A DNA stretch of 27,826 nt from Holophagae bacterium. Its GTDB lineage: Bacteria > Acidobacteriota > Holophagae > Acanthopleuribacterales > Acanthopleuribacteraceae. Made by a program: the position numbers and the translations under genes. The notes beneath the pieces were generated by a model, which was given only the letters and a program-made list of their open reading frames with translations, searched no databases and had not been told where the DNA came from. The stretch is from the NCBI GenBank assembly GCA_050294955.1, contig JBNKOV010000005.1, forward strand, positions 1-27,826, read 5' to 3'. Shown here piece by piece: positions 2,646 to 22,306 of this stretch (position 1 is the stretch's first letter; every line of letters starts with the position of its first letter).

Positions 2646-4274
2646 CTATGCTTTGTATAGATCGTCTATCGAACGGGTTTCCGCCAATAACCGTCTGGCG
2701 GTTTGAAGGCGGGTGTTTATTAGTTCCCGTCCCAACTGTTGGGAACCTGCAAACTCCTTTCGCATTCTTTCGCCCCTGGTGAGGACATTGAGAACAATGA
2801 GAATCCACTCCAGTCCCACCAGATCGCACACGGCTAGCAAGCGGGCTTCCAATCCGGCGTCCTGTTTGCGGTGGTTAATGAATCCTTTTATGGTTTTCAT
2901 CCTCTGGTTTATGGGTTGATTATTGCCAACGTGGCGCAAATAATCACATAATAACTTTACCGGGTCGTCCCAGCCCGCATATTCGAAGTCTAGAATAATC
3001 AGGTTTCCAAGATGATCTCTCAGGCAATTATGGAGACCAAAATCTGAGGGACTGGGGAAGTGAAGTTCCAATGGCAATGGGGTTTCCAGGTCTAAATTCT
3101 TCTTCTGGCAGAAGGACTCGAAGCGACCAAGCGCTTTGTAGTAGGCTGGCTTGAATTGGTTCTTTAGAAATTCTGCCGCTTCATGGTTGTCGCCAGCTTT
3201 AGCGCAGGCTGATTCTAAATCCGCCAGGCGGCGGTCCGTATGTTTACGAAAATCGTTCAAATGCAGTCTGGCATGGGCTGCGCTTGAAATGTCTTCTCGC
3301 GCCAGTTTATGGCCCGTCTCGTCCAATTTAATCAAAAAGGGGAGGAAGTCAGCCCGGGTGGGTGGTTGTCCCTCAATGTATTCCATTAGAAAACCCCTTT
3401 GCAGACGTTTCAGCGGCGCTGGTGAAGATCCAGGTTGATGTCTGTGCAGCATTTTCAGGAATTTCCATTCACAATCAAGCCTTGGTCTATCATCTAAGGC
3501 ATTCTCAAAATACGTTTTAAGCACTCTGCGCGCCCCACTCTGGAATTCCAGGCAAAGGATAAGATTGTTGCCGCCTCGTTTGATGGTGGACCACTTTGTT
3601 AATTTCTCATTGGCGCTCCATAATCCCGGCAGATTAAGCGCAGTAATCTGGTGGTAGTTCGAACATTGGGGAATGTTGGGATGGTTCTCTCGTCCGAACA
3701 AAATGGGCCAGGTTGATTCTGGAAAGTTGGGGTGTTCGGGAACCGACGGCAAATCGTCAATAAAGACATGAGGCTGGAGGCTTTTGATTTTCTGTACCTT
3801 TTCGGTTCTCGTGCTTTCAAAAAAGATCTCACCTCGTCTAAACCCGAGCCCGCCATCCGCCATGCTCATAAAAAATTTGCGTCGGGCCAACGTGTCCAAA
3901 GCGTACTCTCTCAAATTTACGGTGGGATCTATGTTGGAAGTTGTGGTTTTATGACTCACAATGAATATTTCACAGCCCTGCTTCCTTGCCTGGCGAATAA
4001 ATTCTTCAAAACCTTTAAAGAGTCTGGCTTCATGAATGCGCTCCCCGAAAATCAGGGCTTGTATTTTCTGCCAGCGAATCTCGCCTTCCTCTGGGCTGCC
4101 AGCGACCCGTATCAGGCCCTGTTTTATGGACTGTTTTTCCTCTCCCACTGACTCCTGCAACCAGTCTTTTTCTATTGCAAGGCGCCTGGCAAGGGGTAGA
4201 TATTCCAAGATGGTATGATCCAAATCCAGGCCAATTCTAAAGGGCGTTTGAGGGGAAGTTGGGTTATTTATCAT
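2646..4274 (-). CDS. Bifunctional-looking fusion: N-terminal HAD-superfamily phosphatase domain plus C-terminal choline-kinase/aminoglycoside-phosphotransferase (APH/ChoK)-like kinase domain
   Basis: HAD motif I GLDLDHTI at residues 14-21 and motif IV VFIDDLPS. The C-terminal part carries HNCLRDHLGNLIILDFEYAGWDDP, which resembles the ChoK/APH catalytic loop plus the IDFEY motif. ATG at 4272-4274. No strong Shine-Dalgarno. Confidence 0.6.
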   Translation of the reverse strand: MINNPTSPQTPFRIGLDLDHTILEYLPLARRLAIEKDWLQESVGEEKQSIKQGLIRVAGSPEEGEIRWQKIQALIFGERIHEARLFKGFEEFIRQARKQGCEIFIVSHKTTTSNIDPTVNLREYALDTLARRKFFMSMADGGLGFRRGEIFFESTRTEKVQKIKSLQPHVFIDDLPSVPEHPNFPESTWPILFGRENHPNIPQCSNYHQITALNLPGLWSANEKLTKWSTIKRGGNNLILCLEFQSGARRVLKTYFENALDDRPRLDCEWKFLKMLHRHQPGSSPAPLKRLQRGFLMEYIEGQPPTRADFLPFLIKLDETGHKLAREDISSAAHARLHLNDFRKHTDRRLADLESACAKAGDNHEAAEFLKNQFKPAYYKALGRFESFCQKKNLDLETPLPLELHFPSPSDFGLHNCLRDHLGNLIILDFEYAGWDDPVKLLCDYLRHVGNNQPINQRMKTIKGFINHRKQDAGLEARLLAVCDLVGLEWILIVLNVLTRGERMRKEFAGSQQLGRELINTRLQTARRLLAETRSIDDLYKA

Positions 4275-4316: not shown

Positions 4317-5843
4317 TTATTTTAACAGGGTTACCATGTATTTGAACAGGGCTGTGGGTGAGATAGCCTCGCGGTTGCACATGATTCGAACATCAAGCGC
4401 TGCTGCTGCGGCTCCAGCAAAAGCAGCCATTTCCGGGGCCATTCCGCCGCCCAGACAGATACCAGAAATAGACAGGAATGCATCGCCCGCACCAACACGG
4501 TCTACAACTTGGATGGACAAAGCCGGAACCTGGTAGGAAAGGCGTTCCTGCATGCTTCTCATTACAAGGCCTCTTGCTCCCATGGTCGTGGTGATGAATG
4601 AAGCTTGCACCCGTTCGGCGACCATCTGGGCCACCTCTTCTAAAGGGCCGTACCGATTGTGGACAGCCAAGCGAAGCTCTGGCTCGTTTAGGGAGACATA
4701 ATCAACTCGGGGGTAGCGGTTTACGGTGTGATAACCCCTGTTGCCACTGTTGATTTGAGTATTTACAGCCAAAAATTTTGCATGTTTGGAGATGACCTGG
4801 GCCATGGCGTCTGTGATGAAGCCGTTTCCGAAATCGGGAACTATAACAGCATCAAAGCTCCCTAGATTCCTCTCCAACCAATGGCAAATTTCCAATTCCA
4901 GCTCCCTCGCCGGCGGCTTGTCTTCATAGTCATAGACTTCAAAGAGCTTTTGGGCGTCGGGGTCTACGTACCGGCTTTTGAGGATGGTGGGGGCGTCTTC
5001 TCGAAAAAAGAAAATTGGATCGATATTGGGAGCCAGTTTAGATCGAATAAAGGACTCGTAGCTGTTCCTTTCGCCAAGGCCGGTCACCAGGGTTGTTTTT
5101 GAGCAAAACCCTGAGATATGATTGGCTACAGCCAGAGAGCCCCCTGCAAAAAGCTCAGAGCTTTTGTGTTTCACCGCAAAAATATTGCCTTTTCCGGTCT
5201 GGCCCAAATTCTCCGTGTAATTGTACTCATCTACTATGGCGTCTCCCACCACGCAAATATTCAGGTTTTCAAGAGCCTTGATGGCGTCTATAACCTGGTC
5301 GCTGGTGTAGCGTTCTCCGAAATGGCGAAGAAAATCTTTAACGTCTGAAGGAAAGACACTAAAGTGAGCATTCAGCAACTTGCTGGAACTGAAGGTGATC
5401 TCGTCTGTATAAACGGTCTGCCCGCCAATTTCCTCCACAGCATTGCGTTCCTTCAGAATATTCCCGGTAATGTCGTCACCGGGTTTTTGATAATCGCTTC
5501 CTTTGGCGAAGATATGTGGCTTCACTGCCCTGATTGCTGGGATAGCGGTGACTTCTCGTATCAGGCCGACGTAATCAACGCATTCCAGGGCGGCCATATT
5601 TTCACAGCGTAGCATTTCATTGAATACCGGGCGGCCCGGCCCCTTGCTTACAAAGGCATCTGCCGTTAAGGTCACGAAAAGCGCGTCGCCTTCTTCCCTC
5701 GCTCGCTGTAAATGTCGGATATGGCCAACGTGGATGAGGTCGAAGGTTCCGTGACAGAGCACCAGTTTCTTGCCCTGGTTGCGAAGCTCGTCGGCTTTTT
5801 TTTCTAAAAGGTCCAGCTCCAATATCTTGGATTCGCTAGTCAT
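4317..5843 (-). CDS. hldE: HldE-like bifunctional heptose 7-phosphate kinase / heptose 1-phosphate nucleotidyltransferase with reversed domain order (N-terminal cytidylyltransferase-like, C-terminal pfkB kinase)
   Basis: N-terminal LVLCHGTFDLIHVGHIRHL...GDALFVTLTAD...KGSDY aligns with RfaE/HldE domain II (HxGH nucleotidyltransferase). The C-terminus carries the pfkB/ribokinase signature DRVGAGDAF. The ATG overlaps the gmhA stop in an ATGA arrangement. Confidence 0.8.
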   Translation of the reverse strand: MTSESKILELDLLEKKADELRNQGKKLVLCHGTFDLIHVGHIRHLQRAREEGDALFVTLTADAFVSKGPGRPVFNEMLRCENMAALECVDYVGLIREVTAIPAIRAVKPHIFAKGSDYQKPGDDITGNILKERNAVEEIGGQTVYTDEITFSSSKLLNAHFSVFPSDVKDFLRHFGERYTSDQVIDAIKALENLNICVVGDAIVDEYNYTENLGQTGKGNIFAVKHKSSELFAGGSLAVANHISGFCSKTTLVTGLGERNSYESFIRSKLAPNIDPIFFFREDAPTILKSRYVDPDAQKLFEVYDYEDKPPARELELEICHWLERNLGSFDAVIVPDFGNGFITDAMAQVISKHAKFLAVNTQINSGNRGYHTVNRYPRVDYVSLNEPELRLAVHNRYGPLEEVAQMVAERVQASFITTTMGARGLVMRSMQERLSYQVPALSIQVVDRVGAGDAFLSISGICLGGGMAPEMAAFAGAAAAALDVRIMCNREAISPTALFKYMVTLLK

Positions 5844-9454: not shown

Positions 9455-12400
9455 CTATGATGGTTTGTTCTGACGTCGCACCTGGGGCTTGGGCGGGGGT
9501 TTTGGTTTGGGCTCTGGTTTAGCGCTCTCTACTTCTGGCGCGGTCATTTCCTTGAGGCGGCTGATGACCCATTGTTGCGTGCTCAGGGACCGTTCCATTG
9601 CGGTCTGCAGGCCCAAAAGCTTAGTATCCTGTTGGGCCATGCCTTCTTGAAGCGGCTTGAGCCATTGCTCCATCACATGAAACTGTTTTTCCAGCAAAAT
9701 GAGCATGGCCTGACGTTCTTCTCTTCCAGTTGCTTTGGACATTTTGAGGGTGGCCTTCAAGGCGGTGAGCGTTTCCTCATCTATGCCGCCAGATCGGGCT
9801 GGCGGGTTCTCCACGAACTTGCTGAACATTTCCTTCATTGAAGTGGAGTCCAGGTCGCTATCGCTAGCTGACGCCTTTTTAACGGATATCGCTTTAACCA
9901 TTTGCGCTGCGATCTTGCGTAGGGCGAGAAGCGTTGCTTCGTCCAATCCGCCGCTTTTAGGTGTTTCAAGAGCCTGCACGACTCTGTCTGTCATCACTTT
10001 AATCGCGTCGAGCGTGTCCCGATTGTCATTTTCGTTTCTACTTTGTTCCAGAATGTCTTTGATCGTGGAGAGCATGACCTCATCTCCACTCTTCCCGCTC
10101 AGGCGCTCGACGGCATTGGCCAGGGCTCCTTGAATGCCCTCCAACCCCTGGCCGAGTCCCGCTAACTGCAAAATGGCCTGGCCCATGCGATCATCGCCAG
10201 CCGCAGTGAGCGACAGGTTTCTGGCGAACGTGGATTTAATGTCCTCCCATCGCTTAATCTCCTCTTCGGTCATTTTCCCAGTAAGTTCCTTGAACTTGAG
10301 CAGGTTGGCCTCAGCGCCCGACGTTAGCGTCTGGGACTCGTTTTCATAATGGGAGTGAATGAGACTTTCCAGCTCCTCATCGTTCATGATGGGAAGCACC
10401 TTTTCTGCAATCTTATTCATATTGCGATAGGAACCTTGAAGCTTAAAGGATGGTTCGGTGCGGTAGGCGTCCGCCTGGGCCGCCGATTCGATATACTGGA
10501 GGTTTACTGCCAGAATAACATCCCTCACCCGAAGCAATTTGCTCAAAACATTCACGAAATCGTTGATTTCTTCGCCTGAGTAATTTCCCTCCAGTTCTAC
10601 ACCCTCACGAGAGCCCTTTTCTGCAATTTTTATCAGGCTATATACGTCTTTCTGACTGCGAGACATCAACTTGTTCAGGGTGGCGTTGGAGGTGAGACAG
10701 TTTTCTATATAGCTCATGCGGAACACGTCTTCCGTATCGCCGATGATATCGCCAAGGTTATAGGTGTCTGCACGGTTGGCCAACATGTCCGGGATCTGAA
10801 ATTTCTCGCCGCTTTCCGTGTAAGGGTTGCCCGCCATCACCACGGCCACTTTTTTCCCCCGTAGATCGTAGGTTCTGGAGACCCCTTTGTAGACCCCTTC
10901 AATTTTCCGTTGACCGTCGCAAAGTGAAATGAATTTTTGGAGGAGTTCCGGGTTGCAATGCTGAATGTCGTCGAGATAAATCATGATATTGTCGCCCATC
11001 TCGAAAGCCAGATTCAACTTTTTCAGCTCGTCCCGAGCGGAAGCATTGGGCGCCTCTGCTGGATCCAGGGAGGTTACCTGGTGACCAATGGCCGGGCCGT
11101 TGATTTTCATGAAAATGACGCCCAAACGATCCGCAACATATTCCATTAGAGTGGTTTTACCATAACCGGGCGGGGAAATGAGCAATAGCATGCCCATGAG
11201 GTCGGTGCGCTTCTTTTCTCCAACAACTCCCACTTGCTTGGCCAGGTTATCCCCGATTAGAGACAGGTAAACCTTGTCTATAAGTTGGTTCCGGACAAAC
11301 GAACTGAGAATGCGAGGTTTGAATTCGTCCAACTTTAAATCTTTGCGGAAACCTTCGGCCAGTTGCTTTTTCAGGGCCAGGTATTCGATGAAGCGTGGAA
11401 CCTGCTCTGCCTCATAGGCTTCCAGTTTTTGGATGAAGTGATTGTAATGCAGGTGGTAAACGCCTTTTTTAATGAGGTTGTGGTCGCCGCGCAAGCCCTC
11501 AATGGTCTGACTCACATGGGTGTGAATAACCCGAGCCCGGTCGAAATGACCACAATAGTAAAGGGCGGCCGCCTCGTCGATATAATCCTCATTCTCCGGG
11601 GATTGATTTTTGACATAGGCTCCGATCCAGTCTCGTACAAGGAAAAATCGGTTGATTGGGTCGTCCTGCAAAGCGTCCGTGGTTTCGTCGAAATGCTTTC
11701 GGGACTTGTTTTCCCTGAGGTACTTATCGAACCCGTCGTAAACGTCTGAGGCATTTTGGCTAATGCAAAACCCCTCGCCGCTGGTGAGTTCCCTGAATAA
11801 GTAGACGGCGGCATCCTTGATCCAAATCTCTGAAAAAAGACCGGTTTCTTTTAAGAATCGACCGATTAACTGCTCCAATTCATTCACATAACTTTTGGAG
11901 CGTTCGGGATCAGGGAATAGCTTTTCTATGGCGCCTACGCCCCTGCACGTGCGTTCCAGGACGGTTTTTCGGTTCTGCGGGCACCAGGTCAACCAAAATA
12001 CAGCGGCGCATGCGCGGGCTTCGCTGGGATAGATGAGCAGGCCGATCTGACTATGCAACTTGAGGAGGGCTACCAGCATCAGGGCGGCGTCCTGGTCATG
12101 AACGCCCTTGGCGTAACCCTCTTGGAATCTTGGACCCATGAATTTTTGGATCTCTTTTTGCATTACTTCTCGGGTTTGATTGGAAGCTGCCCTAATCTGG
12201 CCATCTCTTTGCAAATGAAGCAGATACTGATAGGCCAGGTACTCGCCGCGATAGACCTCCCTGCTCTCCGATAGGTATTCACGGTCCCAGAGATCTTGAG
12301 TTTCCAAAAATTGAGGATCTGCTATTTTTTCGAAGAAATTGGTGCCGGTGAGGTGATAGTATTGACCGTCTTCCCGTGCGACAATGGTGAGGGCCAGATC

Positions 12401-12925
12401 CTGGGTGTTAACGGAGAATCGGTGTTCTCCCAGCCGAATGACATTGTCTCCGCCTTCGAAAAGATCCTGGCGATCCTTGAGTTGGCGCACGGCGTCTTCC
12501 CTGATGGTCTTTAACTGGCTCTGCAGGGAGTCGGCCTTCACCGAGTCGTCAAGGTCCTTTAATTGGGATACAATGTCTCGCACTTTTTCGATCATGAGAT
12601 CGCCAGCAAAATAGCCGTTGATCTCGTTAATCGTTTTGAAATTGCCAATCCTGTTTTTGATGCCCTTCAGGATGCGATCTGCCGCACTCATCAGTGCGCC
12701 TGTCCGCTTGTTGCGGGCCTCCACCAGGTTTAGCTTTTTGGCTTCAAAGGCGTTGTAGATCTCATCCCGCTTCTCGGCAAGCTGAACCGCAAACTCGTCA
12801 AAATCTGCGAATCTTCCTTCCAGCTCTTCTACCTGCACCATAAGCCGAGTGAGATAATTATCGCATTTTTCCGGTTCATCGCAGACATCCAGGTAGTTGA
12901 TCATGGCCTGGCTGAGCAGCTTCAT
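9455..12925 (-). CDS. Large (1156 aa) protein with a central MoxR/McrB-class AAA+ ATPase core and long non-ATPase N- and C-terminal regions. Last gene of the flotillin-linked operon.
   Basis: Walker A LLISPPGYGKTTL at about aa 583-592. Walker B and sensor MIYLDDIQHCNPELLQKFISL. VVMAGNPYTESGEKFQIPDMLANRAD is equivalent to the MoxR segment ATQNP..E..LPEA.LDRF. The C-terminal tail is Pro/Lys-rich: KPEPKPKPPPKPQVRRQNKPS. The ATG at 12923-12925 overlaps the TGA of the upstream gene (ATGA). Confidence 0.65.
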   Translation of the reverse strand: MKLLSQAMINYLDVCDEPEKCDNYLTRLMVQVEELEGRFADFDEFAVQLAEKRDEIYNAFEAKKLNLVEARNKRTGALMSAADRILKGIKNRIGNFKTINEINGYFAGDLMIEKVRDIVSQLKDLDDSVKADSLQSQLKTIREDAVRQLKDRQDLFEGGDNVIRLGEHRFSVNTQDLALTIVAREDGQYYHLTGTNFFEKIADPQFLETQDLWDREYLSESREVYRGEYLAYQYLLHLQRDGQIRAASNQTREVMQKEIQKFMGPRFQEGYAKGVHDQDAALMLVALLKLHSQIGLLIYPSEARACAAVFWLTWCPQNRKTVLERTCRGVGAIEKLFPDPERSKSYVNELEQLIGRFLKETGLFSEIWIKDAAVYLFRELTSGEGFCISQNASDVYDGFDKYLRENKSRKHFDETTDALQDDPINRFFLVRDWIGAYVKNQSPENEDYIDEAAALYYCGHFDRARVIHTHVSQTIEGLRGDHNLIKKGVYHLHYNHFIQKLEAYEAEQVPRFIEYLALKKQLAEGFRKDLKLDEFKPRILSSFVRNQLIDKVYLSLIGDNLAKQVGVVGEKKRTDLMGMLLLISPPGYGKTTLMEYVADRLGVIFMKINGPAIGHQVTSLDPAEAPNASARDELKKLNLAFEMGDNIMIYLDDIQHCNPELLQKFISLCDGQRKIEGVYKGVSRTYDLRGKKVAVVMAGNPYTESGEKFQIPDMLANRADTYNLGDIIGDTEDVFRMSYIENCLTSNATLNKLMSRSQKDVYSLIKIAEKGSREGVELEGNYSGEEINDFVNVLSKLLRVRDVILAVNLQYIESAAQADAYRTEPSFKLQGSYRNMNKIAEKVLPIMNDEELESLIHSHYENESQTLTSGAEANLLKFKELTGKMTEEEIKRWEDIKSTFARNLSLTAAGDDRMGQAILQLAGLGQGLEGIQGALANAVERLSGKSGDEVMLSTIKDILEQSRNENDNRDTLDAIKVMTDRVVQALETPKSGGLDEATLLALRKIAAQMVKAISVKKASASDSDLDSTSMKEMFSKFVENPPARSGGIDEETLTALKATLKMSKATGREERQAMLILLEKQFHVMEQWLKPLQEGMAQQDTKLLGLQTAMERSLSTQQWVISRLKEMTAPEVESAKPEPKPKPPPKPQVRRQNKPS

Positions 12926-14973
12926 TTGAGCATTGTATTCGGCAGCCCCTTCGGATTTGCCATTTCCCTGCTGCGGTTCTTGAGCTCTGCCCGTATTTGA
13001 TTCAACCGAGTGTAAATATCTGATATAGCGTCAATTATTTCGGTAGTTTTTGTCGGGTCGTCTATCTTCAGATTGCTGACGATTTCAATCAAAAGCTCCA
13101 GCTCAGATCCGTTCTTGGCAAGGGCTTCTTCGATCTCTTTAGCTTCGCTCACCTTCTCGAAGGACTCAACAGCTCCAGCCTGATCGGTGATCCGGTCCTC
13201 ATAGGGTTGAAGCGCGTTAGGACTTAATAGGAAATTAACGCAGTCAGACGACAGTTTGTCGCGTTGCTCCTTTACCAGATCATTCAGGTTCTCAATGAGT
13301 TGTGTGTCGGCATAGCGCAATTCGCCTGCAGAAATGATTTCGCCGCTAATCACACGAAGCTCTGATAGTTTGTGGACAAACTCTTCTATGGACTCGAACC
13401 TGGAGCGTTTGATATGGTTTAGCAGTTCGTGAGTATTGTCAGCTACGGTCTGGGTCTGCTGTTTGGTTGCTCGCTTTACCTTTTGAACCTTGTCAAACTC
13501 ATCAACGGCGGAACCGGCAGCCTCGCGAATCCCAGCCAGCGCCTCAGCCAAATTAAAGGCCTCTTCGTTTGCGAGCCAGAACCAGGCTTCGCTGACGTCC
13601 CCGGCTTTTTTCACGATGTCGATATACAGAGATGCGTAGATTTCTTCCCGTTCAATGAGATTCAATATCTCATTGCACTCTGCCATAGCCCTCACAATAT
13701 CTTTGTTCCCAATTTTATACAACGGGTTGTCTGATGAGGCGCCAACCTCGAAACCGTCACTCACATAGGGGGTTTGCCAGAATTGCACTGTGTGGTGTTT
13801 CTGGGGTTCTTCCTCGGCCCGGAAGTACACCAGCTCGCCACTATTAAAGATAGAGTAACCCTCGCAAATTATAGGGGTTGCTACCTCTTGACTGATGAGG
13901 TTGTAGGAGAGCAGCACATAGTGGCCCTGTTCTCGCTGGTAAAAGCAGTATAGATAGTCTTCCCCATTTGGAGAGGCCACCCTACAATCGAACATCATGT
14001 CGGAGAAATCGGTGTCAAAAATTTTGTGGCGGCCTGTGGCCAGATAATAACCATTGGGAAAAATAATCCCGTGATCGTCAGGCAGGAAGACACAGGTGCT
14101 TTCAATTGCGTCTATTCGAGTTACAGTCCCCAGTTTTTCGTTAAATACAAAATAACGATACTGCTTTTCCTGGTAGGGCTTGATCTTTAACAGAATGAGG
14201 TGGCCCACAATCGTGTAATAGAATTCACCGTCGTCCAGATTCTGATCGGGGTCGTCCACAGGTTCGTTGTAAATGCCAACCCCGTCTCGGGTGTTGTCAT
14301 CTATTTTAATAGTGAGATCGCCGCCAACTGTTTCTACAAAAACCCTGTCCTCTATAGAGATATGGGGATGTTCCCCAGAGCGGTGATAGTCGCGGTGGGT
14401 GCGCTTCCAAACGAAATCGTGTTGGGTTGGATACTTGAATTCCGCATCGCTTCGGTTGTCGATGTAAGTTATTGAATCGTCTTTGATGAGCCACTTGAAG
14501 GTCTTGATGTCTGTGGCGGATTTTCCCACACGGAAGACCATAAACAGATGTGGCCCGATTTGGGTGAACTTTGCGAAGATCGTGTTCTTGTAATAGCGGT
14601 AGAGATTTTCAAAGTCTTCGTGGAACTTGGGGTTGTTCAACAGTTCAAGGTCTCTTTTTTTGAACTGGTGATCCACAAAATCATAGATTGAAAAAACATC
14701 GTGCAGCTTGATCTCGGATCGCAAGCCAACCTGAACGTTGTAGCCGAATATGAAACGAGTCCCCAATGGGAAAAGGTCTCTGGGCGTACAGTTGTTGTCG
14801 GTGTTAATCCGATCACTGCCAAGAAGTTTGGTCTCAACCGACCCGAAGACCTCTTTTCGAGCCTCATTCAAGGAGTTCAAGCGGTCCTTAAGCTCCTTGC
14901 CCAAGGTGTTCAATCTTCCGCGAATTATCTCGTAAGCGCCCCCTTCAAGGGTAACTTCTTCTGTACCTTCCAT
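12922..14973 (-). CDS. 683-aa conserved hypothetical protein translationally coupled to the AAA+ protein. It has a beta-rich central region, an alpha-helical C-terminal third and no recognisable catalytic motif.
   Basis: Long intact ORF. Its stop overlaps the downstream start. It lies 83 nt downstream of flotillin in the same orientation. I found no Walker, vWA-MIDAS or nuclease motifs by eye. Confidence 0.6.
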   Translation of the reverse strand: MEGTEEVTLEGGAYEIIRGRLNTLGKELKDRLNSLNEARKEVFGSVETKLLGSDRINTDNNCTPRDLFPLGTRFIFGYNVQVGLRSEIKLHDVFSIYDFVDHQFKKRDLELLNNPKFHEDFENLYRYYKNTIFAKFTQIGPHLFMVFRVGKSATDIKTFKWLIKDDSITYIDNRSDAEFKYPTQHDFVWKRTHRDYHRSGEHPHISIEDRVFVETVGGDLTIKIDDNTRDGVGIYNEPVDDPDQNLDDGEFYYTIVGHLILLKIKPYQEKQYRYFVFNEKLGTVTRIDAIESTCVFLPDDHGIIFPNGYYLATGRHKIFDTDFSDMMFDCRVASPNGEDYLYCFYQREQGHYVLLSYNLISQEVATPIICEGYSIFNSGELVYFRAEEEPQKHHTVQFWQTPYVSDGFEVGASSDNPLYKIGNKDIVRAMAECNEILNLIEREEIYASLYIDIVKKAGDVSEAWFWLANEEAFNLAEALAGIREAAGSAVDEFDKVQKVKRATKQQTQTVADNTHELLNHIKRSRFESIEEFVHKLSELRVISGEIISAGELRYADTQLIENLNDLVKEQRDKLSSDCVNFLLSPNALQPYEDRITDQAGAVESFEKVSEAKEIEEALAKNGSELELLIEIVSNLKIDDPTKTTEIIDAISDIYTRLNQIRAELKNRSREMANPKGLPNTMLK

Positions 14974-15015
14974 GCGCTGCCTGTCCCCAAATAATATTTA
15001 AATCCATTGCCAGAG

Positions 15016-15054
15016 CTCCAAAGAGGCGACCGCCAGAACGGCCGCCCTTTGGAG
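15016..15054 (-). promoter_or_regulatory. Strong intra-operon RNA hairpin 2 nt after the flotillin stop codon (8-bp and 8-bp stems separated by a bulge, 6-nt loop, one G-U wobble on the minus-strand transcript)
   Basis: The minus-strand RNA reads CUCCAAAG-GGCGGCCG-UUCUGG-CGGUCGCC-U-CUUUGGAG. The outer 8-bp pairing is perfect. There is no clean U-tract after it, so it is more likely an attenuator, processing or stability element than a full terminator. Confidence 0.5.
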
Positions 15055-15056
15055 AT

Positions 15057-17120
15057 TTATTTAAAGAGCAGGGAAGCGGACTGGCCGCCCAGGCCCAATT
15101 TTTCGAGGATGCCCATGCCGTGTTTCAGCAATCCTGTGGTCTCCTCATTATCGGATAGGGAGATCATCCGGCTGACCAGCGCTGAAAGTGTGAGGTTCTT
15201 CACGTCTTCAGAGGTCATGCCGAATTGGCCTACGAATTTCTTTAACTGGCTTTTGAAGTATTCCGGATCTCCGTTAAAGAAGGTTTCCTTCACATCGCTG
15301 AGCACTTCACTGTTGCTAACGAGGCGATCCACTGCTTTGCCTTGAGTTATGGTGGATGTAATCTTGTCAAAGAAGGCGCCGTCTCCGCCTACGATATCGA
15401 TCTTGGCCGTTCTCAATGCTTCCTGAATGATGGCTGCCTGGGAGGCGGCGATATCTTTCTGTGCGAGGATTTTGGCAAGTTCAATTTCCTTGGCCTGGTT
15501 CAAGCGCAATTTAAATTCTTCGTGCTCGCGTCCAACGCCGTCCAACTTCTTCATGGCGTCGGCCTTCTTCTCAATGCCAAGCGCCTCTGCGTGACTCTTG
15601 CGCTGGAGGACATTGGCTTCTGCTTCGCCTTGTTTCTCAATGGCCACAGCATGGGCCTCCAGGCCTTTGGCTTCCGCTAGCGCCTTCTTCTCATGGATGG
15701 AGGCCTCAACATTGCCCATTTTCTCCGACGCGTCCGCTTTGGCGGTCATCACCTCGGCTTCTGCAAGACCAATAGCGGCTTCTTCGGCAGCCTTGGCCTC
15801 CGCCATCAGCTTTCGAGCTTCTGCTTTTAAGTCGGAAGCTTTGCGGTCCGCCTCTGCTTCCACTACGTTTTGCTCAGCTTTCAATTCTGCGGCCCGCTTG
15901 CCGGCTTCTGCGGCCTTTACCTGCCGCAGAGCTTCCTCTTCGGCCTGGGATGATGCCGCCGTTATGGCTACGGCCTTGTTTCGATCAGCTTCGGCAGTGG
16001 CCTGGGTGTCTTTGATTTTCTCCTGCTCTTCTACAACGGACCGTTCCACCGTGACTCTTTCCCGGATGATTTCTTGGATGTTCTTGCGCTCTTCTTCCAG
16101 AGCGCGTTCTTTTTCAATACGAGCCAGCTCCACAACGCGCTCTCGCTCGTTGACTTCCAGAAGGCGGTCTTTTTCAACCCGTTCCTTCTCAACAGCGCCG
16201 GTTTTTTCTTTGCTCATCTGGGCCACAAGCACCTGACGGGCCTTGTTCTCTTCGGCAATTTGAACTTCTTCTTCGGTGGCGATGCGCGCCTGTTCGGCCT
16301 TCAGGCGTTCTTCCTGTTGAACCTTCATGGTTTCAGCAGTTTCACGAGCCTTGGTCGATGCGATCTCCCTTCTCTGACGTTCCTCGGCCTCAGCCTGTTG
16401 ACGCTCCAGTTCCAGGATCTGTTCTTTTGCTTCAACATCTTGACGTTTTAGGGATTTATCTCGTTCACGCTCGATCTTGTTGGCTTGAACCCGTTGGGTG
16501 GCGGTAAGATCGGTGATCTTTTTTATGCCTTCTGCATCCAAGATATTAAATGGATCCAGCTCGGTCATGGGTGTTTGTTCCAGATAATCAATGGCGGTGT
16601 CTTCAAGGATATAGCCGTTCAGGTCGGTGCCAATGATCTGTTGCACTTCGTCTTTGAATTCCCTACGAGCATTGTACAGATCGACAAAATCGAATTTCTT
16701 GCCCACTGTTTTCAGGGCTTCGGAAAATTTAGCGTCGAACAATTCCACCAGTGTGGTCTGATTGGAGGCGCGATCACAGCCAATGAGTTGGGCTACCTTT
16801 AAAACGTCTTCAATGGTTTTGTTCACTTTCACAAAGAAGACGACTTTGATGTCCGCCCGCATGTTGTCTCTGCAGATAAGACCTTCAGAGCCCTGTCGAT
16901 GAATTTCAATGCGTTTCACCGAAATGTCCATGGTTTCGGCTCGGTGAATGACGGGAATCACCACCAGTCCGCTGAAGTTCACCTTGGCGCCGCCGAATCC
17001 GTTTCGAACAATAGCTTTGCCCTGGTCCACCTTACGGTAGGAGTTGACCAGGATAAACCCCAGTCCAAACAGAAATATCAGGCCAATGACCAGGCCAATT
17101 ATTCCAACTTGTTCTAACAT
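15057..17120 (-). CDS. Flotillin / YqiK-like SPFH (band 7) domain membrane scaffold protein with a long Ala/Glu-rich coiled-coil
   Basis: N-terminal transmembrane segment (IIGLVIGLIFLFGLGFILV) followed by an SPFH core. The region EAEA...AEAKAAEEAA is an extended, strongly charged coiled-coil typical of flotillins. ATG at 17118-17120 with a GGGAGAG Shine-Dalgarno. It lies 3 nt after the NfeD-like stop. Confidence 0.85.
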   Translation of the reverse strand: MLEQVGIIGLVIGLIFLFGLGFILVNSYRKVDQGKAIVRNGFGGAKVNFSGLVVIPVIHRAETMDISVKRIEIHRQGSEGLICRDNMRADIKVVFFVKVNKTIEDVLKVAQLIGCDRASNQTTLVELFDAKFSEALKTVGKKFDFVDLYNARREFKDEVQQIIGTDLNGYILEDTAIDYLEQTPMTELDPFNILDAEGIKKITDLTATQRVQANKIERERDKSLKRQDVEAKEQILELERQQAEAEERQRREIASTKARETAETMKVQQEERLKAEQARIATEEEVQIAEENKARQVLVAQMSKEKTGAVEKERVEKDRLLEVNERERVVELARIEKERALEEERKNIQEIIRERVTVERSVVEEQEKIKDTQATAEADRNKAVAITAASSQAEEEALRQVKAAEAGKRAAELKAEQNVVEAEADRKASDLKAEARKLMAEAKAAEEAAIGLAEAEVMTAKADASEKMGNVEASIHEKKALAEAKGLEAHAVAIEKQGEAEANVLQRKSHAEALGIEKKADAMKKLDGVGREHEEFKLRLNQAKEIELAKILAQKDIAASQAAIIQEALRTAKIDIVGGDGAFFDKITSTITQGKAVDRLVSNSEVLSDVKETFFNGDPEYFKSQLKKFVGQFGMTSEDVKNLTLSALVSRMISLSDNEETTGLLKHGMGILEKLGLGGQSASLLFK

Positions 17121-17123
17121 TGC

Positions 17124-17735
17124 TTAACTCTCCCAATCCTGAAATGCTTCCACAATATAAAGGTCTTTTTCGTTATCTTTCTCTATAACAAGTGCTTGTG
17201 CCCCCTGGTTTAGGCTATCCCCAGCACGGGTTCGAACGAGCAGCGTTAAGGGCGCTCCTCCGGTCTTCACTTCGGCCTGAGCGATACGGTCTTCCGTGGC
17301 GTCTCCTAGAAGGATGCATAAACTGCCGATGGCCGCAATCTGATCCTCCTCGTAATGGAGGGCCCGAAACAACGAGGAGAAGGGTTTCACCGCAATTTTG
17401 GTTATAAAAATGCTGATGACAATGTTGGGGACCGCCAGGCCCGAGGCTATTAGCAGAGACGAGGTGTTGCTCAGATAATAGTTGCTGAGAATGGCGATGG
17501 CCCACATGGACAGACTCATAAGACTGACAATCAACATGAAGGGCACTTCTCCGGCGCTGAGAAACACCAGAAATCCGTGAAAAGCTCCGGGGTCACCGTC
17601 CATATCGAAATCAAAATCGAAGGTGGACAAGTCCAATGCGCCAATGATGACGCATAGCCAATAGATGAGCACGATGATGAGCAACACGGTGAATGGCAAA
17701 TTTATAGCGCTAAACGCGGCATCCAGTAATAACAT
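17124..17735 (-). CDS. YqiJ/NfeD-like membrane protein (N-terminal transmembrane helices, C-terminal OB-fold-like beta domain), the usual flotillin partner
   Basis: 203 aa. The hydrophobic N-terminus (LPFTVLLIIVLIYWLCVIIGAL) is followed by an acidic DFDFDMDGDP segment. The C-terminal G..G.A.V....G.....VEA pattern resembles the NfeD beta-barrel. Gene order matches E. coli yqiJ-yqiK. GAGGTGA Shine-Dalgarno. Confidence 0.6.
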   Translation of the reverse strand: MLLLDAAFSAINLPFTVLLIIVLIYWLCVIIGALDLSTFDFDFDMDGDPGAFHGFLVFLSAGEVPFMLIVSLMSLSMWAIAILSNYYLSNTSSLLIASGLAVPNIVISIFITKIAVKPFSSLFRALHYEEDQIAAIGSLCILLGDATEDRIAQAEVKTGGAPLTLLVRTRAGDSLNQGAQALVIEKDNEKDLYIVEAFQDWES

Positions 17736-17832
17736 GGCGTCACCTCAAAACAGGCCTCTCAAGTCTATTGCAGGCCCAGTATCCCATTAAACGCAATATT
17801 TGATGTTTTAAGCTCATCAAGAACGCAAAATT

Positions 17833-17862
17833 AGCGTGATCTACTATACCAGAAACCCGCAG
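17833..17862 (-). promoter_or_regulatory. Candidate sigma70 promoter for the nfeD-flotillin operon: -35 CTGACA, 18-nt spacer, -10 TATAGT on the minus strand
   Basis: Reverse complement of 17857-17862 is CTGACA and of 17833-17838 is TATAGT. It lies about 90 nt upstream of the NfeD-like ATG. Pattern only. Confidence 0.3.
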
Positions 17863-18022
17863 AACCTGTCAGCAGAATAGAAGAGTTCTTGGTTCGGGCC
17901 TTGAGTCCTTAAACCATGCGCCAAATGCATGGGCTATATGTTGGCCCTTGTTTGGGAGGCTCTGTCCAAGGATCTTGTCAGTTTCAGCCGCAGCAGTAGC
18001 AATGATCGGGTAGTCAACATCG

Positions 18023-18493
18023 TCAATCCACCTCGCGGGCTTCTACTTCGATGATTCTGTCGTCTGAAACAGGATCGTGGGGCGGTTGCGGACCTCGGCT
18101 TTGGTGGGTGAAGGCGGTTTGCACCTTGACGTTTTTTTTGAACCAGGCAATGACAACTCTGGCTGCGCTTTTCCTGAGGGGCGGGATGAGGAGAAGGAAG
18201 GCGATGGTGTCTGTGATGAAGCCCGGCGTAAGGAGCAGGGTTCCGATGACCACAAGGATCAACCCTGATACGATTTCCAGGGCGGGAACCTGGCCGCGAG
18301 CCATGGTGTTTTGAATGTCCCGCCAGGCCTTCAAGCCCTGGGCTCTCACCATGCCGCCGCCCAAAATGCCTGTGGCCACGCATAGCAGTAGGGTTGTGAA
18401 TACGGTAATTTCCTGAGCTGCAAGAATGAGCAGGTACAATTCTCCAAAACTCAAAATAACCACTAACAGAAAAAATCGGGCAATCAATCCCAT
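18023..18493 (-). CDS. fxsA: FxsA family inner-membrane protein (F-plasmid-mediated exclusion of phage T7 suppressor)
   Basis: LLLTPGFITDTIAFLLLIPPLRK matches the conserved FxsA core (LLLPGFFTD...LLLPPVRK). 156 aa with three hydrophobic segments. It starts 12 nt after the rel stop. Confidence 0.75.
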   Translation of the reverse strand: MGLIARFFLLVVILSFGELYLLILAAQEITVFTTLLLCVATGILGGGMVRAQGLKAWRDIQNTMARGQVPALEIVSGLILVVIGTLLLTPGFITDTIAFLLLIPPLRKSAARVVIAWFKKNVKVQTAFTHQSRGPQPPHDPVSDDRIIEVEAREVD

Positions 18494-18505
18494 GATCCAA
18501 CTCGC

Positions 18506-20830: not shown

Positions 20831-22306
20831 TCAGGCCTTGCTTCTGCTTTTGTCCTCACCCTTGTTGGCCAGGGTCACTGTGCGATAAATACCGCCCAGG
20901 ATTTTGCCCAATTTTTGAAGAACCTTGCGCTCTGTCATGTACAGGAACACGGGGCTTGCAACAAAAATTGAGGAGTAGGTTCCCACGATAATGCCAATGA
21001 GAAGCGGGAATGCAAAGTCTTCCAATGTAGCGTTATTGGAACCCCAGTAGATGACCGCCACCACAAAGAACGTGGTAAGCGAGGTAACCAGGGTTCGGCT
21101 CAACGTCTGGTTGATGGAGGTGTTGGTGAGCTTCACCAGATCTGGGTTCTTCATATCGCTGCGGTTGTCCCGAATCCGGTCGAACACCACAATGGTGTCG
21201 TTCAGGGAGTAACCCACGATGGTGAGGAAGGCCGCAACCACAGGGTTGGACAATTCCACGCCCCAGAGGGTGCCTGCAACAGCGAAAACGCCAAGGGAAA
21301 TCACAACGTCGTGGGCAAGAGCCACAACCGAAGCCACGGCGTAGTTGCCGTCAAAACGGATGGCGACATAGATCAGGATGCAGAGCAGCGACATGAAGAT
21401 GGCGCTTTCCGCATTGCTCAACAATTCCGCTGCAATAGAAGGAGAGAAGGTCTCGTTGGAAACAATCCGGTAGGTGCTGAGCACGAAGTTGTCTTGGATA
21501 AAAGTCTTCAAAACGCCAGCGTCTTCGCCAGCCGCAACGGTTGAGCTGAAATCCAGAACGTCAAAGCTTTTGATGAAATCGTGATTGGCGCTTCGAGTTG
21601 CATCCATTTGGGCTGCAATATCTTTATAGCTTCCATTGTTGCCGCGTTTCAGCGGATCGTATTTGGCAAGCGCTGCGCCAAAAGCATCGGTGGTGATGTG
21701 GTTCAGGGCTGGGTAGATCACGTTGGTGATGGCCGTCTCCAGCTTGTCTGCATTGGCCTGATCGCTTGCCGCTGCAAGGTCTTTCAGAGTGGCTGCGGTG
21801 GCTGCATTGGACACCACGTTGCCTGCCAATGTGCGATAAGTCTGAGCAATAACCTCGTCCTTGTCCACCAGACCGTAGATATTTTCGGTTTGGAATTTGG
21901 ACGCCAGCACGCCGGGCTCAACCGCCTTCAGTTTGCTGATCAGTTCCGCGTCTCCGGATGTGATGCCGGCAAAGGCGGTTTCCAGGTTGCGGCGGCGAGT
22001 GAGAGACGCTTCGTTCTCGTTGCCAGCCTCAACATCGGGCTTTTTGATCTTCAGGGAGAAGCGGCTTACGCCTTCGGCCTGTTCTTCAACAATGGTGGCC
22101 TTGGGTTCGTACTTCTCAACCGCTTCACGAACGGTTTGAATGCTGAGATCGGGATCTTCGAAGGCCACGGTCATTTTGGTGCCGCCCTCGAAATCGACAT
22201 TGAACTTAATGCCGATTGTAGCTATGTAGGCAATTGAAAGTATCACCAGAACAATGGAGAGAAACCCACATACCTTGCGCTTTGCTAGAAAATCATAGTG
22301 TTTCAT
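20831..22306 (-). CDS. secF: Protein-export membrane protein SecF (unusually long, 491 aa)
   Basis: The N-terminus HYDF...VDFEGGT and the C-terminal transmembrane block (ALAHDVVISLGVF..., IVGYSLNDTIVVFDRIRDN) align with E. coli SecF. AGGAG Shine-Dalgarno. Follows secD after 12 nt. Confidence 0.9.
   Translation of the reverse strand: MKHYDFLAKRKVCGFLSIVLVILSIAYIATIGIKFNVDFEGGTKMTVAFEDPDLSIQTVREAVEKYEPKATIVEEQAEGVSRFSLKIKKPDVEAGNENEASLTRRRNLETAFAGITSGDAELISKLKAVEPGVLASKFQTENIYGLVDKDEVIAQTYRTLAGNVVSNAATAATLKDLAAASDQANADKLETAITNVIYPALNHITTDAFGAALAKYDPLKRGNNGSYKDIAAQMDATRSANHDFIKSFDVLDFSSTVAAGEDAGVLKTFIQDNFVLSTYRIVSNETFSPSIAAELLSNAESAIFMSLLCILIYVAIRFDGNYAVASVVALAHDVVISLGVFAVAGTLWGVELSNPVVAAFLTIVGYSLNDTIVVFDRIRDNRSDMKNPDLVKLTNTSINQTLSRTLVTSLTTFFVVAVIYWGSNNATLEDFAFPLLIGIIVGTYSSIFVASPVFLYMTERKVLQKLGKILGGIYRTVTLANKGEDKSRSKA

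Follow-up and report, generated by a model that had tools for sequence, protein, structure and literature searches.

A single gene for an AAA+ ATPase with a MoxR-like predicted fold, cut by a one-base deletion, in a flotillin-linked operon of a Holophagae bacterium

The YqiJ/YuaF-flotillin operon has already been described by comparative genomics (Ravi et al., mSystems 2024, PMC11237479), where its ATPase is named 'Betapropeller+Coiled-coil+AAA-ATPase'. In that work the operon, which sometimes carries CesT/Tir-PspA and of which abbreviated versions are widespread, was grouped with PspA systems, and a Dokdonia neighbourhood with the same gene order is given in Table S3. The ATPase family is thus known computationally and is experimentally untouched. 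The locus described here lies in a stretch of 27,826 nucleotides (nt; referred to as the window) that forms positions 1 to 27,826 of contig JBNKOV010000005.1 in the genome of a Holophagae bacterium (GenBank assembly GCA_050294955.1), and it adds one frameshifted member to the family.

A first-pass annotation of the window, made from the sequence alone, had treated an open reading frame (ORF) of 1156 amino acids (aa) as a whole protein and the neighbouring 683-aa ORF as its adjacent partner. The 1156-aa ORF is present, and its Walker A, Walker B/sensor, MoxR-diagnostic and C-terminal tail sequences are as quoted and are not chance matches. However, nt 9455-14973 on the reverse strand are one gene with a product of ~1839 aa, which a 1-nt deletion has cut into the two ORFs. 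The 1156-aa ORF is the C-terminal part of this product, of which the supposed partner forms the N-terminal third.

The missing base is present in two close relatives. At the deletion site, blastn aligns ATGGC-AAATCC in the window with ATGGCCAAATCC in L087 and ATGGCAAAATCA in L001. The deletion is the sole indel over 7.2 kb between the window and L087 (97.0% nucleotide identity), and L001 (97.7% identity to the window) differs at the same site. L087 encodes an intact 1840-aa protein (P0243), belonging to the same 90% cluster as the window protein, that reads REMAKSEGAAEYNAQMKLL through the junction, and the window gives REMAKSEGAAEYNAQMKLL after a frame switch. P0001, which is 98% identical, is also continuous across the junction (NRSREMAKSEGAAEYNAQMKLLSQ), and the same sequence is obtained from the window only when the frame is switched. 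Once the base is restored, the window product is 1839 aa long and DUF3686, DUF7902 and AAA fall in one reading frame. Frame analysis indicates that only the last 11 residues of the 683-aa ORF (NPKGLPNTMLK) are out-of-frame read-through, which ends at a TGA overlapping the ATG at 12925; this ATG encodes a Met within the ~1839-aa protein. Both parts form one continuous ORF in 80 of 80 species-representative loci (median 1726 codons), and residue 1 of the 1156-aa ORF aligns to position ~680-730 of full-length homologues and 50%-cluster representatives. Compared with L001, the window gene has a ratio of nonsynonymous to synonymous substitution rates of 0.13 in its C-terminal part and of 0.07 and 0.02 in its N-terminal part, and the whole gene has therefore been under purifying selection. 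No further contig was recovered when the window's own ORFs and P0121 were looked up by exact sequence.

Two further public assemblies also carry a broken copy of this gene. In L005 (ENA contig_210) an extra C in a C-run at 9940-9960, ~30 codons upstream of the window's break, is an independent event, and in L001 the gene is interrupted at 1405-1415 by an NN scaffold gap, where GGTGT is duplicated. The pieces that gene callers report are accordingly 664+1095 aa and 407+1436 aa, respectively. All three breaks look like assembly artefacts or lesions and not design. Single-base indels make gene callers split the gene in several assemblies, and this very long gene seems often to be fragmented in databases. 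The possibility that the gene is naturally split in other lineages was rejected, because the sole candidate, P0024 in L005, owes its break to the extra C at a different position. Programmed -1 frameshifting was likewise rejected, as no slippery heptamer occurs at the site and every relative is in frame.

Table 1. Positions of the split ATPase gene, its predicted domains and motifs, and the other elements of the operon. Residue numbers refer to the 1156-aa ORF unless the upstream ORF is named; pLDDT, predicted local distance difference test; AF2, AlphaFold2.
Feature	Position (nt)	Strand	Details
Downstream ORF	9455..12925	-	1156 aa; C-terminal ~63% of the split gene; AF2 pLDDT 79.3
Upstream ORF	12922..14973	-	683 aa; N-terminal third of the same gene; AF2 pLDDT 86.6
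Frameshift site	12955..12959	-	One base absent from GC(N)AAA (Ala-Lys codons), ~nt 12956-12958; blastn
DUF3686 (PF12458)	13579..14895	-	aa 27-465 of upstream ORF; Pfam E 2.4e-189
DUF7902 (PF25472)	12964..13218	-	aa 586-670 of upstream ORF; Pfam E 3.5e-28
AAA+ alpha/beta subdomain	10691..11233	-	aa ~565-745
Walker A SPPGYGKTT	11150..11176	-	aa 584-592; G589, K590 and T591 invariant in 70 homologues
Walker B strand IMIYLDD	10967..10987	-	aa 647-653; D652 and D653 invariant in 70 homologues
Pre-sensor-1 beta-hairpin	10865..10906	-	aa 674-687, EGVYKG/VSRTYDL; almost invariant; DSSP of AF2 model
Sensor-1 N700 (AGNP) to putative arginine finger R718 (NRAD)	10772..10828	-	Both invariant in 70 homologues
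Putative sensor-2 arginine R834	10424..10426	-	Within invariant lid motif QGSYR (830-834); presumed role
Pro/Lys-rich tail KPEPKPKPPPKPQVRRQNKPS	9458..9520	-	aa 1136-1156; predicted disordered
Flotillin-like (SPFH/YqiK-type)	15057..17120	-	687 aa; N-terminal transmembrane segment, SPFH-like region, long Glu/Ala/Lys-rich coil
YqiJ/YuaF (NfeD)-type membrane protein	17124..17735	-	203 aa; YqiJ_N E 0.001
Candidate sigma-70-like promoter CTGACA-18-TATAGT	17843..17872	-	10/12 match; ~108 nt upstream of yqiJ-like ATG; such sites not above chance in the region

By its sequence, the window gene is a member of the DUF3686-DUF7902-AAA family, which carries the database label 'DNA repair ATPase'. The 1156-aa ORF has 2826 homologues, and among the matches listed nearly all are single proteins of 1.6-1.9 thousand aa with DUF3686, DUF7902 and AAA. 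Homologues are collinear over the full length, and share 52-65% identity in the AAA-containing part and 50-64% in the N-terminal part (69-70 sequences). Among 1.84 billion cluster representatives, phmmer with the 1156-aa ORF as query returned only 1493 proteins at E <=0.001, and the family is therefore isolated at the sequence level. The regions flanking the ATPase core had been described as having no recognisable motifs, but the protein is no orphan, given its Pfam matches to DUF3686, DUF7902 and AAA and the published operon (PMC11237479). The family is a known one, and for its function the databases offer a label only.

From N- to C-terminus, the full-length protein runs through the beta-rich DUF3686, the helical DUF7902, a further helical stretch and the AAA+ domain, and it ends in a variable tail. 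In the AF2 model, DUF3686 is an N-terminal helix followed by ~26 beta-strands in a propeller-like arrangement that is not a vWA fold, and DUF7902 belongs to a helical-bundle region (aa 417-672 of the upstream ORF) resembling spectrin-type three-helix bundles. A cryptic vWA fold, for which structure prediction of the 683-aa ORF had been proposed, is not seen there, as the ORF is predicted to be nearly all-beta and then helical bundles, not alpha/beta. The 1156-aa ORF consists of a coiled coil and helical domains (aa 1-565) followed by the alpha/beta domain of the AAA+ module with its lid (aa ~565-908). Within the first of these, the model has coiled-coil helices at aa 2-155, a small beta unit at aa 162-200, a confident helical domain at aa 226-460 and a long helix at aa 494-530. 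Homology fades past ~aa 940, and aa ~940-1156 are poorly conserved, forming a low-confidence helical region and a disordered tail. The Pro/Lys-rich tail that was noted earlier is present in the window protein but is lineage-specific and not a feature of the family, as only 6 of 70 homologues have >=20% Pro in the last 30 residues. Neither Pfam nor the AF2 models of both ORFs revealed a transmembrane segment or a protease domain in the ATPase.

The catalytic and hairpin residues of the AAA+ domain are conserved in the family (Table 1), and putative pore-facing elements are nearly invariant. Strands are modelled at aa 579-583, 604-609, 647-652, 693-699 and 719-723, and the lid extends to ~aa 908. 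The sequence IYLDDIQHCNPELLQKF occupies aa 649-665 (nt 10931-10981) and VVMAGNPYTESGEKFQIPDMLANRAD occupies aa 695-720 (nt 10766-10843). Walker B is a 'DD' variant of the usual 'DE', and the sensor-1 and arginine-finger roles are putative, assigned by analogy to MoxR/AAA_5 motifs. The two strands of the pre-sensor-1 hairpin (674-679 and 682-687) sit between a helix (659-668) and the strand at 693-699 in the AF2 model. A loop at aa 610-627 is almost wholly invariant in the 70 homologues. Over the whole AAA region (376 residues), no indels were found among 24 sampled homologues, and identity to the window sequence is 73-77% in a 10-sequence alignment.

In Pfam the 1156-aa ORF matches AAA (PF00004, E 6.6e-7), RuvB_N, AAA_5 and AAA_22. 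The AAA_5 score of 22.9 bits is marginal against a cut-off of 22, and PF00004 scores higher; AAA_3 gave no match, and AAA_5 matches are precomputed for part of the homologues only. Both phmmer and a 10-sequence profile aligned only the P-loop in searches of the PDB, to p97/VCP and RuvB, hhalign gave a probability of 14% with Escherichia coli RavA, and NCBIfam returned only sub-threshold RuvB and CDC48 matches. As placement from sequence failed, the class was judged by fold comparison. The best target-normalised TM-scores in Foldseek were 0.52-0.59, to NorQ and CbbQ. When the modelled AAA domain was compared with individual structures, the MoxR proteins CbbQ2 (16.1; 244 of 267 residues aligned) and NorQ (15.8; 232 of 254) scored highest, followed by dynein (14.3), midasin (13.8), ClpA (13.6), ClpB (12.8), Lon (12.2), the classical AAA proteins Vps4, p97 and FtsH (11.2-11.5), and McrB (10.7-10.8). 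On this ranking of a predicted structure, the earlier assignment to a MoxR/McrB type divides: 'MoxR-type' is supported as a fold class, the closest structural relatives being MoxR proteins, and 'McrB-type' is not supported.

Canonical MoxR membership, however, fails on the vWA partner. There is no Pfam VWA match in the operon and no recurrent vWA cluster in the flanks of the 80 loci, and a search of the 683-aa ORF for the DxSxS motif found none, in agreement with the first-pass annotation. The partner logic therefore differs from that of canonical MoxR proteins, as had been suspected, and the conserved partners are the products of flotillin-like and YqiJ-like genes upstream.

The ATPase gene is the third of a conserved operon in which it follows a yqiJ/nfeD-like and a flotillin-like gene. 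The yqiJ-like stop is 3 nt ahead of the flotillin-like start. Of the two partners, the flotillin-like gene precedes the ATPase gene at 61 of 64 related loci, and the YqiJ-like gene precedes that for flotillin at 52 of 60. At least 598 species from many phyla encode the AAA+ motor next to flotillin and NfeD. The linkage spans Planctomycetota, Bacteroidota, Verrucomicrobiota, Desulfobacterota, Kiritimatiellota, Omnitrophota and one Clostridiaceae genome. The same trio is found in Streptomyces and on Pseudomonas fluorescens plasmid pQBR103, where RefSeq uses the names 'flotillin family' or 'SPFH domain-containing protein', and 'DNA repair ATPase'. Source records give orthologues of the flotillin-like protein the names flotillin family, YqiK or PHB domain; Band_7 matches 4 of 55 of them (best E 3.3e-13), and a profile matches only the QmcA coil (E 6e-4). 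YqiJ_N matches 23 of 46 orthologues of the small membrane protein (best E 8e-9). Genes for PspA (PF04012) and CesT_Tir_1 (PF22550) are upstream in 17 and 14 of the 80 loci, respectively, all of them in Bacteroidota, and the Flavobacteriaceae loci reproduce the published Dokdonia order (PMC11237479). The window has no PspA, CesT or yjf-like genes.

The best explanation of these findings, and one that we consider moderately probable, is that the product of the single gene in this flotillin-linked operon uses ATP to remodel flotillin assemblies under envelope stress. An SPFH assembly built from flotillin and its NfeD-type partner would form at the membrane's inner face. The cytosolic ATPase would oligomerise via a MoxR/midasin-like AAA+ ring, which is suggested because the arginine finger is conserved. 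The cis-fused beta-rich domain and the spectrin-like helical arms would replace a vWA adaptor and engage the flotillin/NfeD assembly, the presumed target, or its clients. ATP would then be spent to remodel, disassemble or recycle the flotillin assembly during envelope stress, the direction perhaps being any of these.

Several points weigh against this reading. Gene linkage is all that suggests physical contact with flotillin, and the flotillin-like protein of the window has no Pfam match even at E 10. Sequence methods align only the P-loop, the best Pfam family is the generic PF00004, and the class is thus not placed by sequence. In the model, aa 610-627 form a conserved non-helical insertion or loop before the helix at 628-643, and the helix-2 insert hairpin that is expected in the MoxR clade is not modelled. 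The DD Walker B, as read from the sequence, leaves the rate of hydrolysis uncertain. The missing base reflects either an error of assembly or a very recent mutation. Searches of the experimental literature for DUF3686, PF12458 and 'DNA repair ATPase' with flotillin found nothing on any family member, and none of the papers listed in a search on MoxR with flotillin or SPFH proteins mentions MoxR.

SPFH cages are known to house AAA+ machines, for example FtsH in HflK/C, and MoxR proteins generally act as maturation chaperones for specific client complexes. The ATPase could accordingly be a chaperone or unfoldase docked on or in the flotillin/NfeD cage that acts on membrane-protein clients in the manner of FtsH-HflK/C, albeit lacking a protease domain. 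The same flotillin/YqiJ gene linkage and the structural matches to CbbQ and NorQ would fit such a role. However, no conserved client gene is nearby, since only PspA and CesT recur and then in Bacteroidota only, and the ATPase has neither a transmembrane segment nor a protease domain. We therefore regard this account as unlikely.

Still less probable is a role in the manner of Vps4, in which the ATPase recycles PspA (ESCRT-III-type) polymers and flotillin is a mere membrane platform. Genes for PspA and for a CesT/Tir-like chaperone are immediately upstream in 17 and 14 of the 80 loci, yjf-like PspA-associated genes adjoin the trio on pQBR103, and the operon has been grouped with PspA systems (PMC11237479). 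PspA is, however, missing from the window and from 63 of the 80 loci, while flotillin is nearly always there, and the AAA+ domain is MoxR-like and not Vps4-like or classical, with no MIT-like domain found.

There is slightly less again to be said for two proteins, either a stand-alone ATPase of MoxR type (1156 aa) that works with the separate 683-aa protein as its adaptor or, in a weaker form, a split that is real in this strain and whose halves are both made and assemble; we consider this improbable. The ATGA stop/start overlap of the two ORFs could permit translational coupling, and both halves are intact and under purifying selection. Nevertheless, the missing base is present in both close relatives, the parts are fused in all 80 species, and the breaks in L005 and L001 are an independent event and an NN scaffold gap. 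A DNA repair ATPase or an anti-phage defence ATPase is very improbable, as the only point in favour is the Pfam/NCBI label 'ATPase involved in DNA repair', whereas Pfam and NCBIfam revealed no DNA-binding, nuclease or helicase domain, the genes constantly next to it encode membrane proteins, the gene is located among housekeeping genes (tgt-yajC-secDF-relA-fxsA), PADLOC gave no significant match (best E 0.0016, P-loop only) and the phage collection holds no copies, which led to rejection of a defence or viral origin. The label 'DNA repair ATPase' is probably wrong.

The window is an ordinary chromosomal stretch made up of tgt-yajC-secD-secF-relA/spoT-fxsA, the three-gene module, an SNF-type transporter and sugar-nucleotide genes, and Rfam gave no matches over its whole length. 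An FxsA-family membrane protein gene (18023-18493, reverse strand; PF04186, E 1e-27) is located between relA/spoT and the module, and an overlapping 188-aa ORF with a TTG start (17934-18500) looks like noise. A non-coding gap of ~290 nt (17736-18022) lies ahead of the yqiJ-like gene. Within the module, the 89-nt spacer between the flotillin-like stop (15057) and the ATPase start (14973) includes a strong 16-bp RNA hairpin (14997-15050, reverse strand) that directly follows the flotillin-like stop codon and is not followed by a U-tract. The spacer has a minimum free energy of -35.9 kcal/mol (z = -3.6), none of 200 shuffled sequences was as stable, and the stem is also found in L001. The hairpin could lower expression of the ATPase relative to flotillin. 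On pQBR103, a 425-kb megaplasmid of P. fluorescens SBW25, the genes directly upstream of the trio (positions 4-3058 of L089) belong to the DUF2491, DUF350, DUF1190 and glutathionylspermidine-synthase families and are the yjf-like PspA-associated polyamine set as in PMC11237479.

Four further genes on the reverse strand of the window have unusual features. In the 508-aa product of 4317-5843, a cytidylyltransferase-like domain (aa 30-122) is N-terminal and a PfkB kinase domain (aa 195-485) C-terminal, which we take to be the reverse of the usual HldE order. Transketolase is encoded by separate ORFs at 889-1860 and 1811-2629, for a C-terminal part of 323 aa and an N-terminal part of 272 aa, respectively, that overlap by 50 nt and are probably a natural split form. 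In the SecF-like protein (20831-22306, 491 aa) the SecD_SecF_C match covers only aa 278-459, leaving an N-terminal extension of ~270 residues unexplained. The 542-aa ORF at 2646-4274, in the sugar-nucleotide/transketolase cluster, has only a sub-threshold match to APH phosphotransferases (E 0.0016).

For this window alone the finding is an ordinary one, namely a further family member that is frameshifted. The remodelling of flotillin assemblies proposed above has wider interest, as to our knowledge it is not established how bacterial and eukaryotic flotillin (SPFH) cages assemble, open and recycle. For the energy-consuming regulator that is missing, a highly conserved large AAA+ motor encoded beside flotillin and NfeD is the obvious candidate, and it ties flotillin to envelope stress of the PspA type. 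A more specific proposal, which is possible but rather doubtful, is that this MoxR/midasin-type motor with its cis-fused beta-rich domain and spectrin-like arms is a dedicated ATP-driven assembly/disassembly factor of bacterial flotillin cages. If true, it would be the first regulator of an SPFH scaffold known to depend on energy, and flotillin's counterpart to what Vps4 is for ESCRT-III. Tractable hosts that carry the family include P. fluorescens with pQBR103, Streptomyces and Flavobacteriia.

Compared with other members of the DUF3686-DUF7902-AAA family, the window copy shares the collinear architecture and the operon order yqiJ-like, flotillin-like, ATPase, and differs in its 1-nt deletion, in its Pro/Lys tail and in having no PspA/CesT extension of the kind seen in Bacteroidota. 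MoxR proteins such as CbbQ, NorQ and RavA are stand-alone proteins of ~300 aa, whereas the AAA domain of the window sits inside an 1839-aa multidomain protein that also differs from them in its DD Walker B and its lack of a vWA/MIDAS partner. Midasin/Rea1 and dynein are AAA_5 motors that likewise have large cis-fused appendages. However, they contain six AAA modules, where the window protein has a single one per chain, and the window protein has neither the MIDAS domain nor the microtubule-binding stalk. In FtsH-HflK/C and in Vps4-ESCRT-III/PspA, an AAA+ motor is likewise coupled to a membrane scaffold, and at this locus the coupling is genetic and is to SPFH proteins, and in some lineages to PspA.

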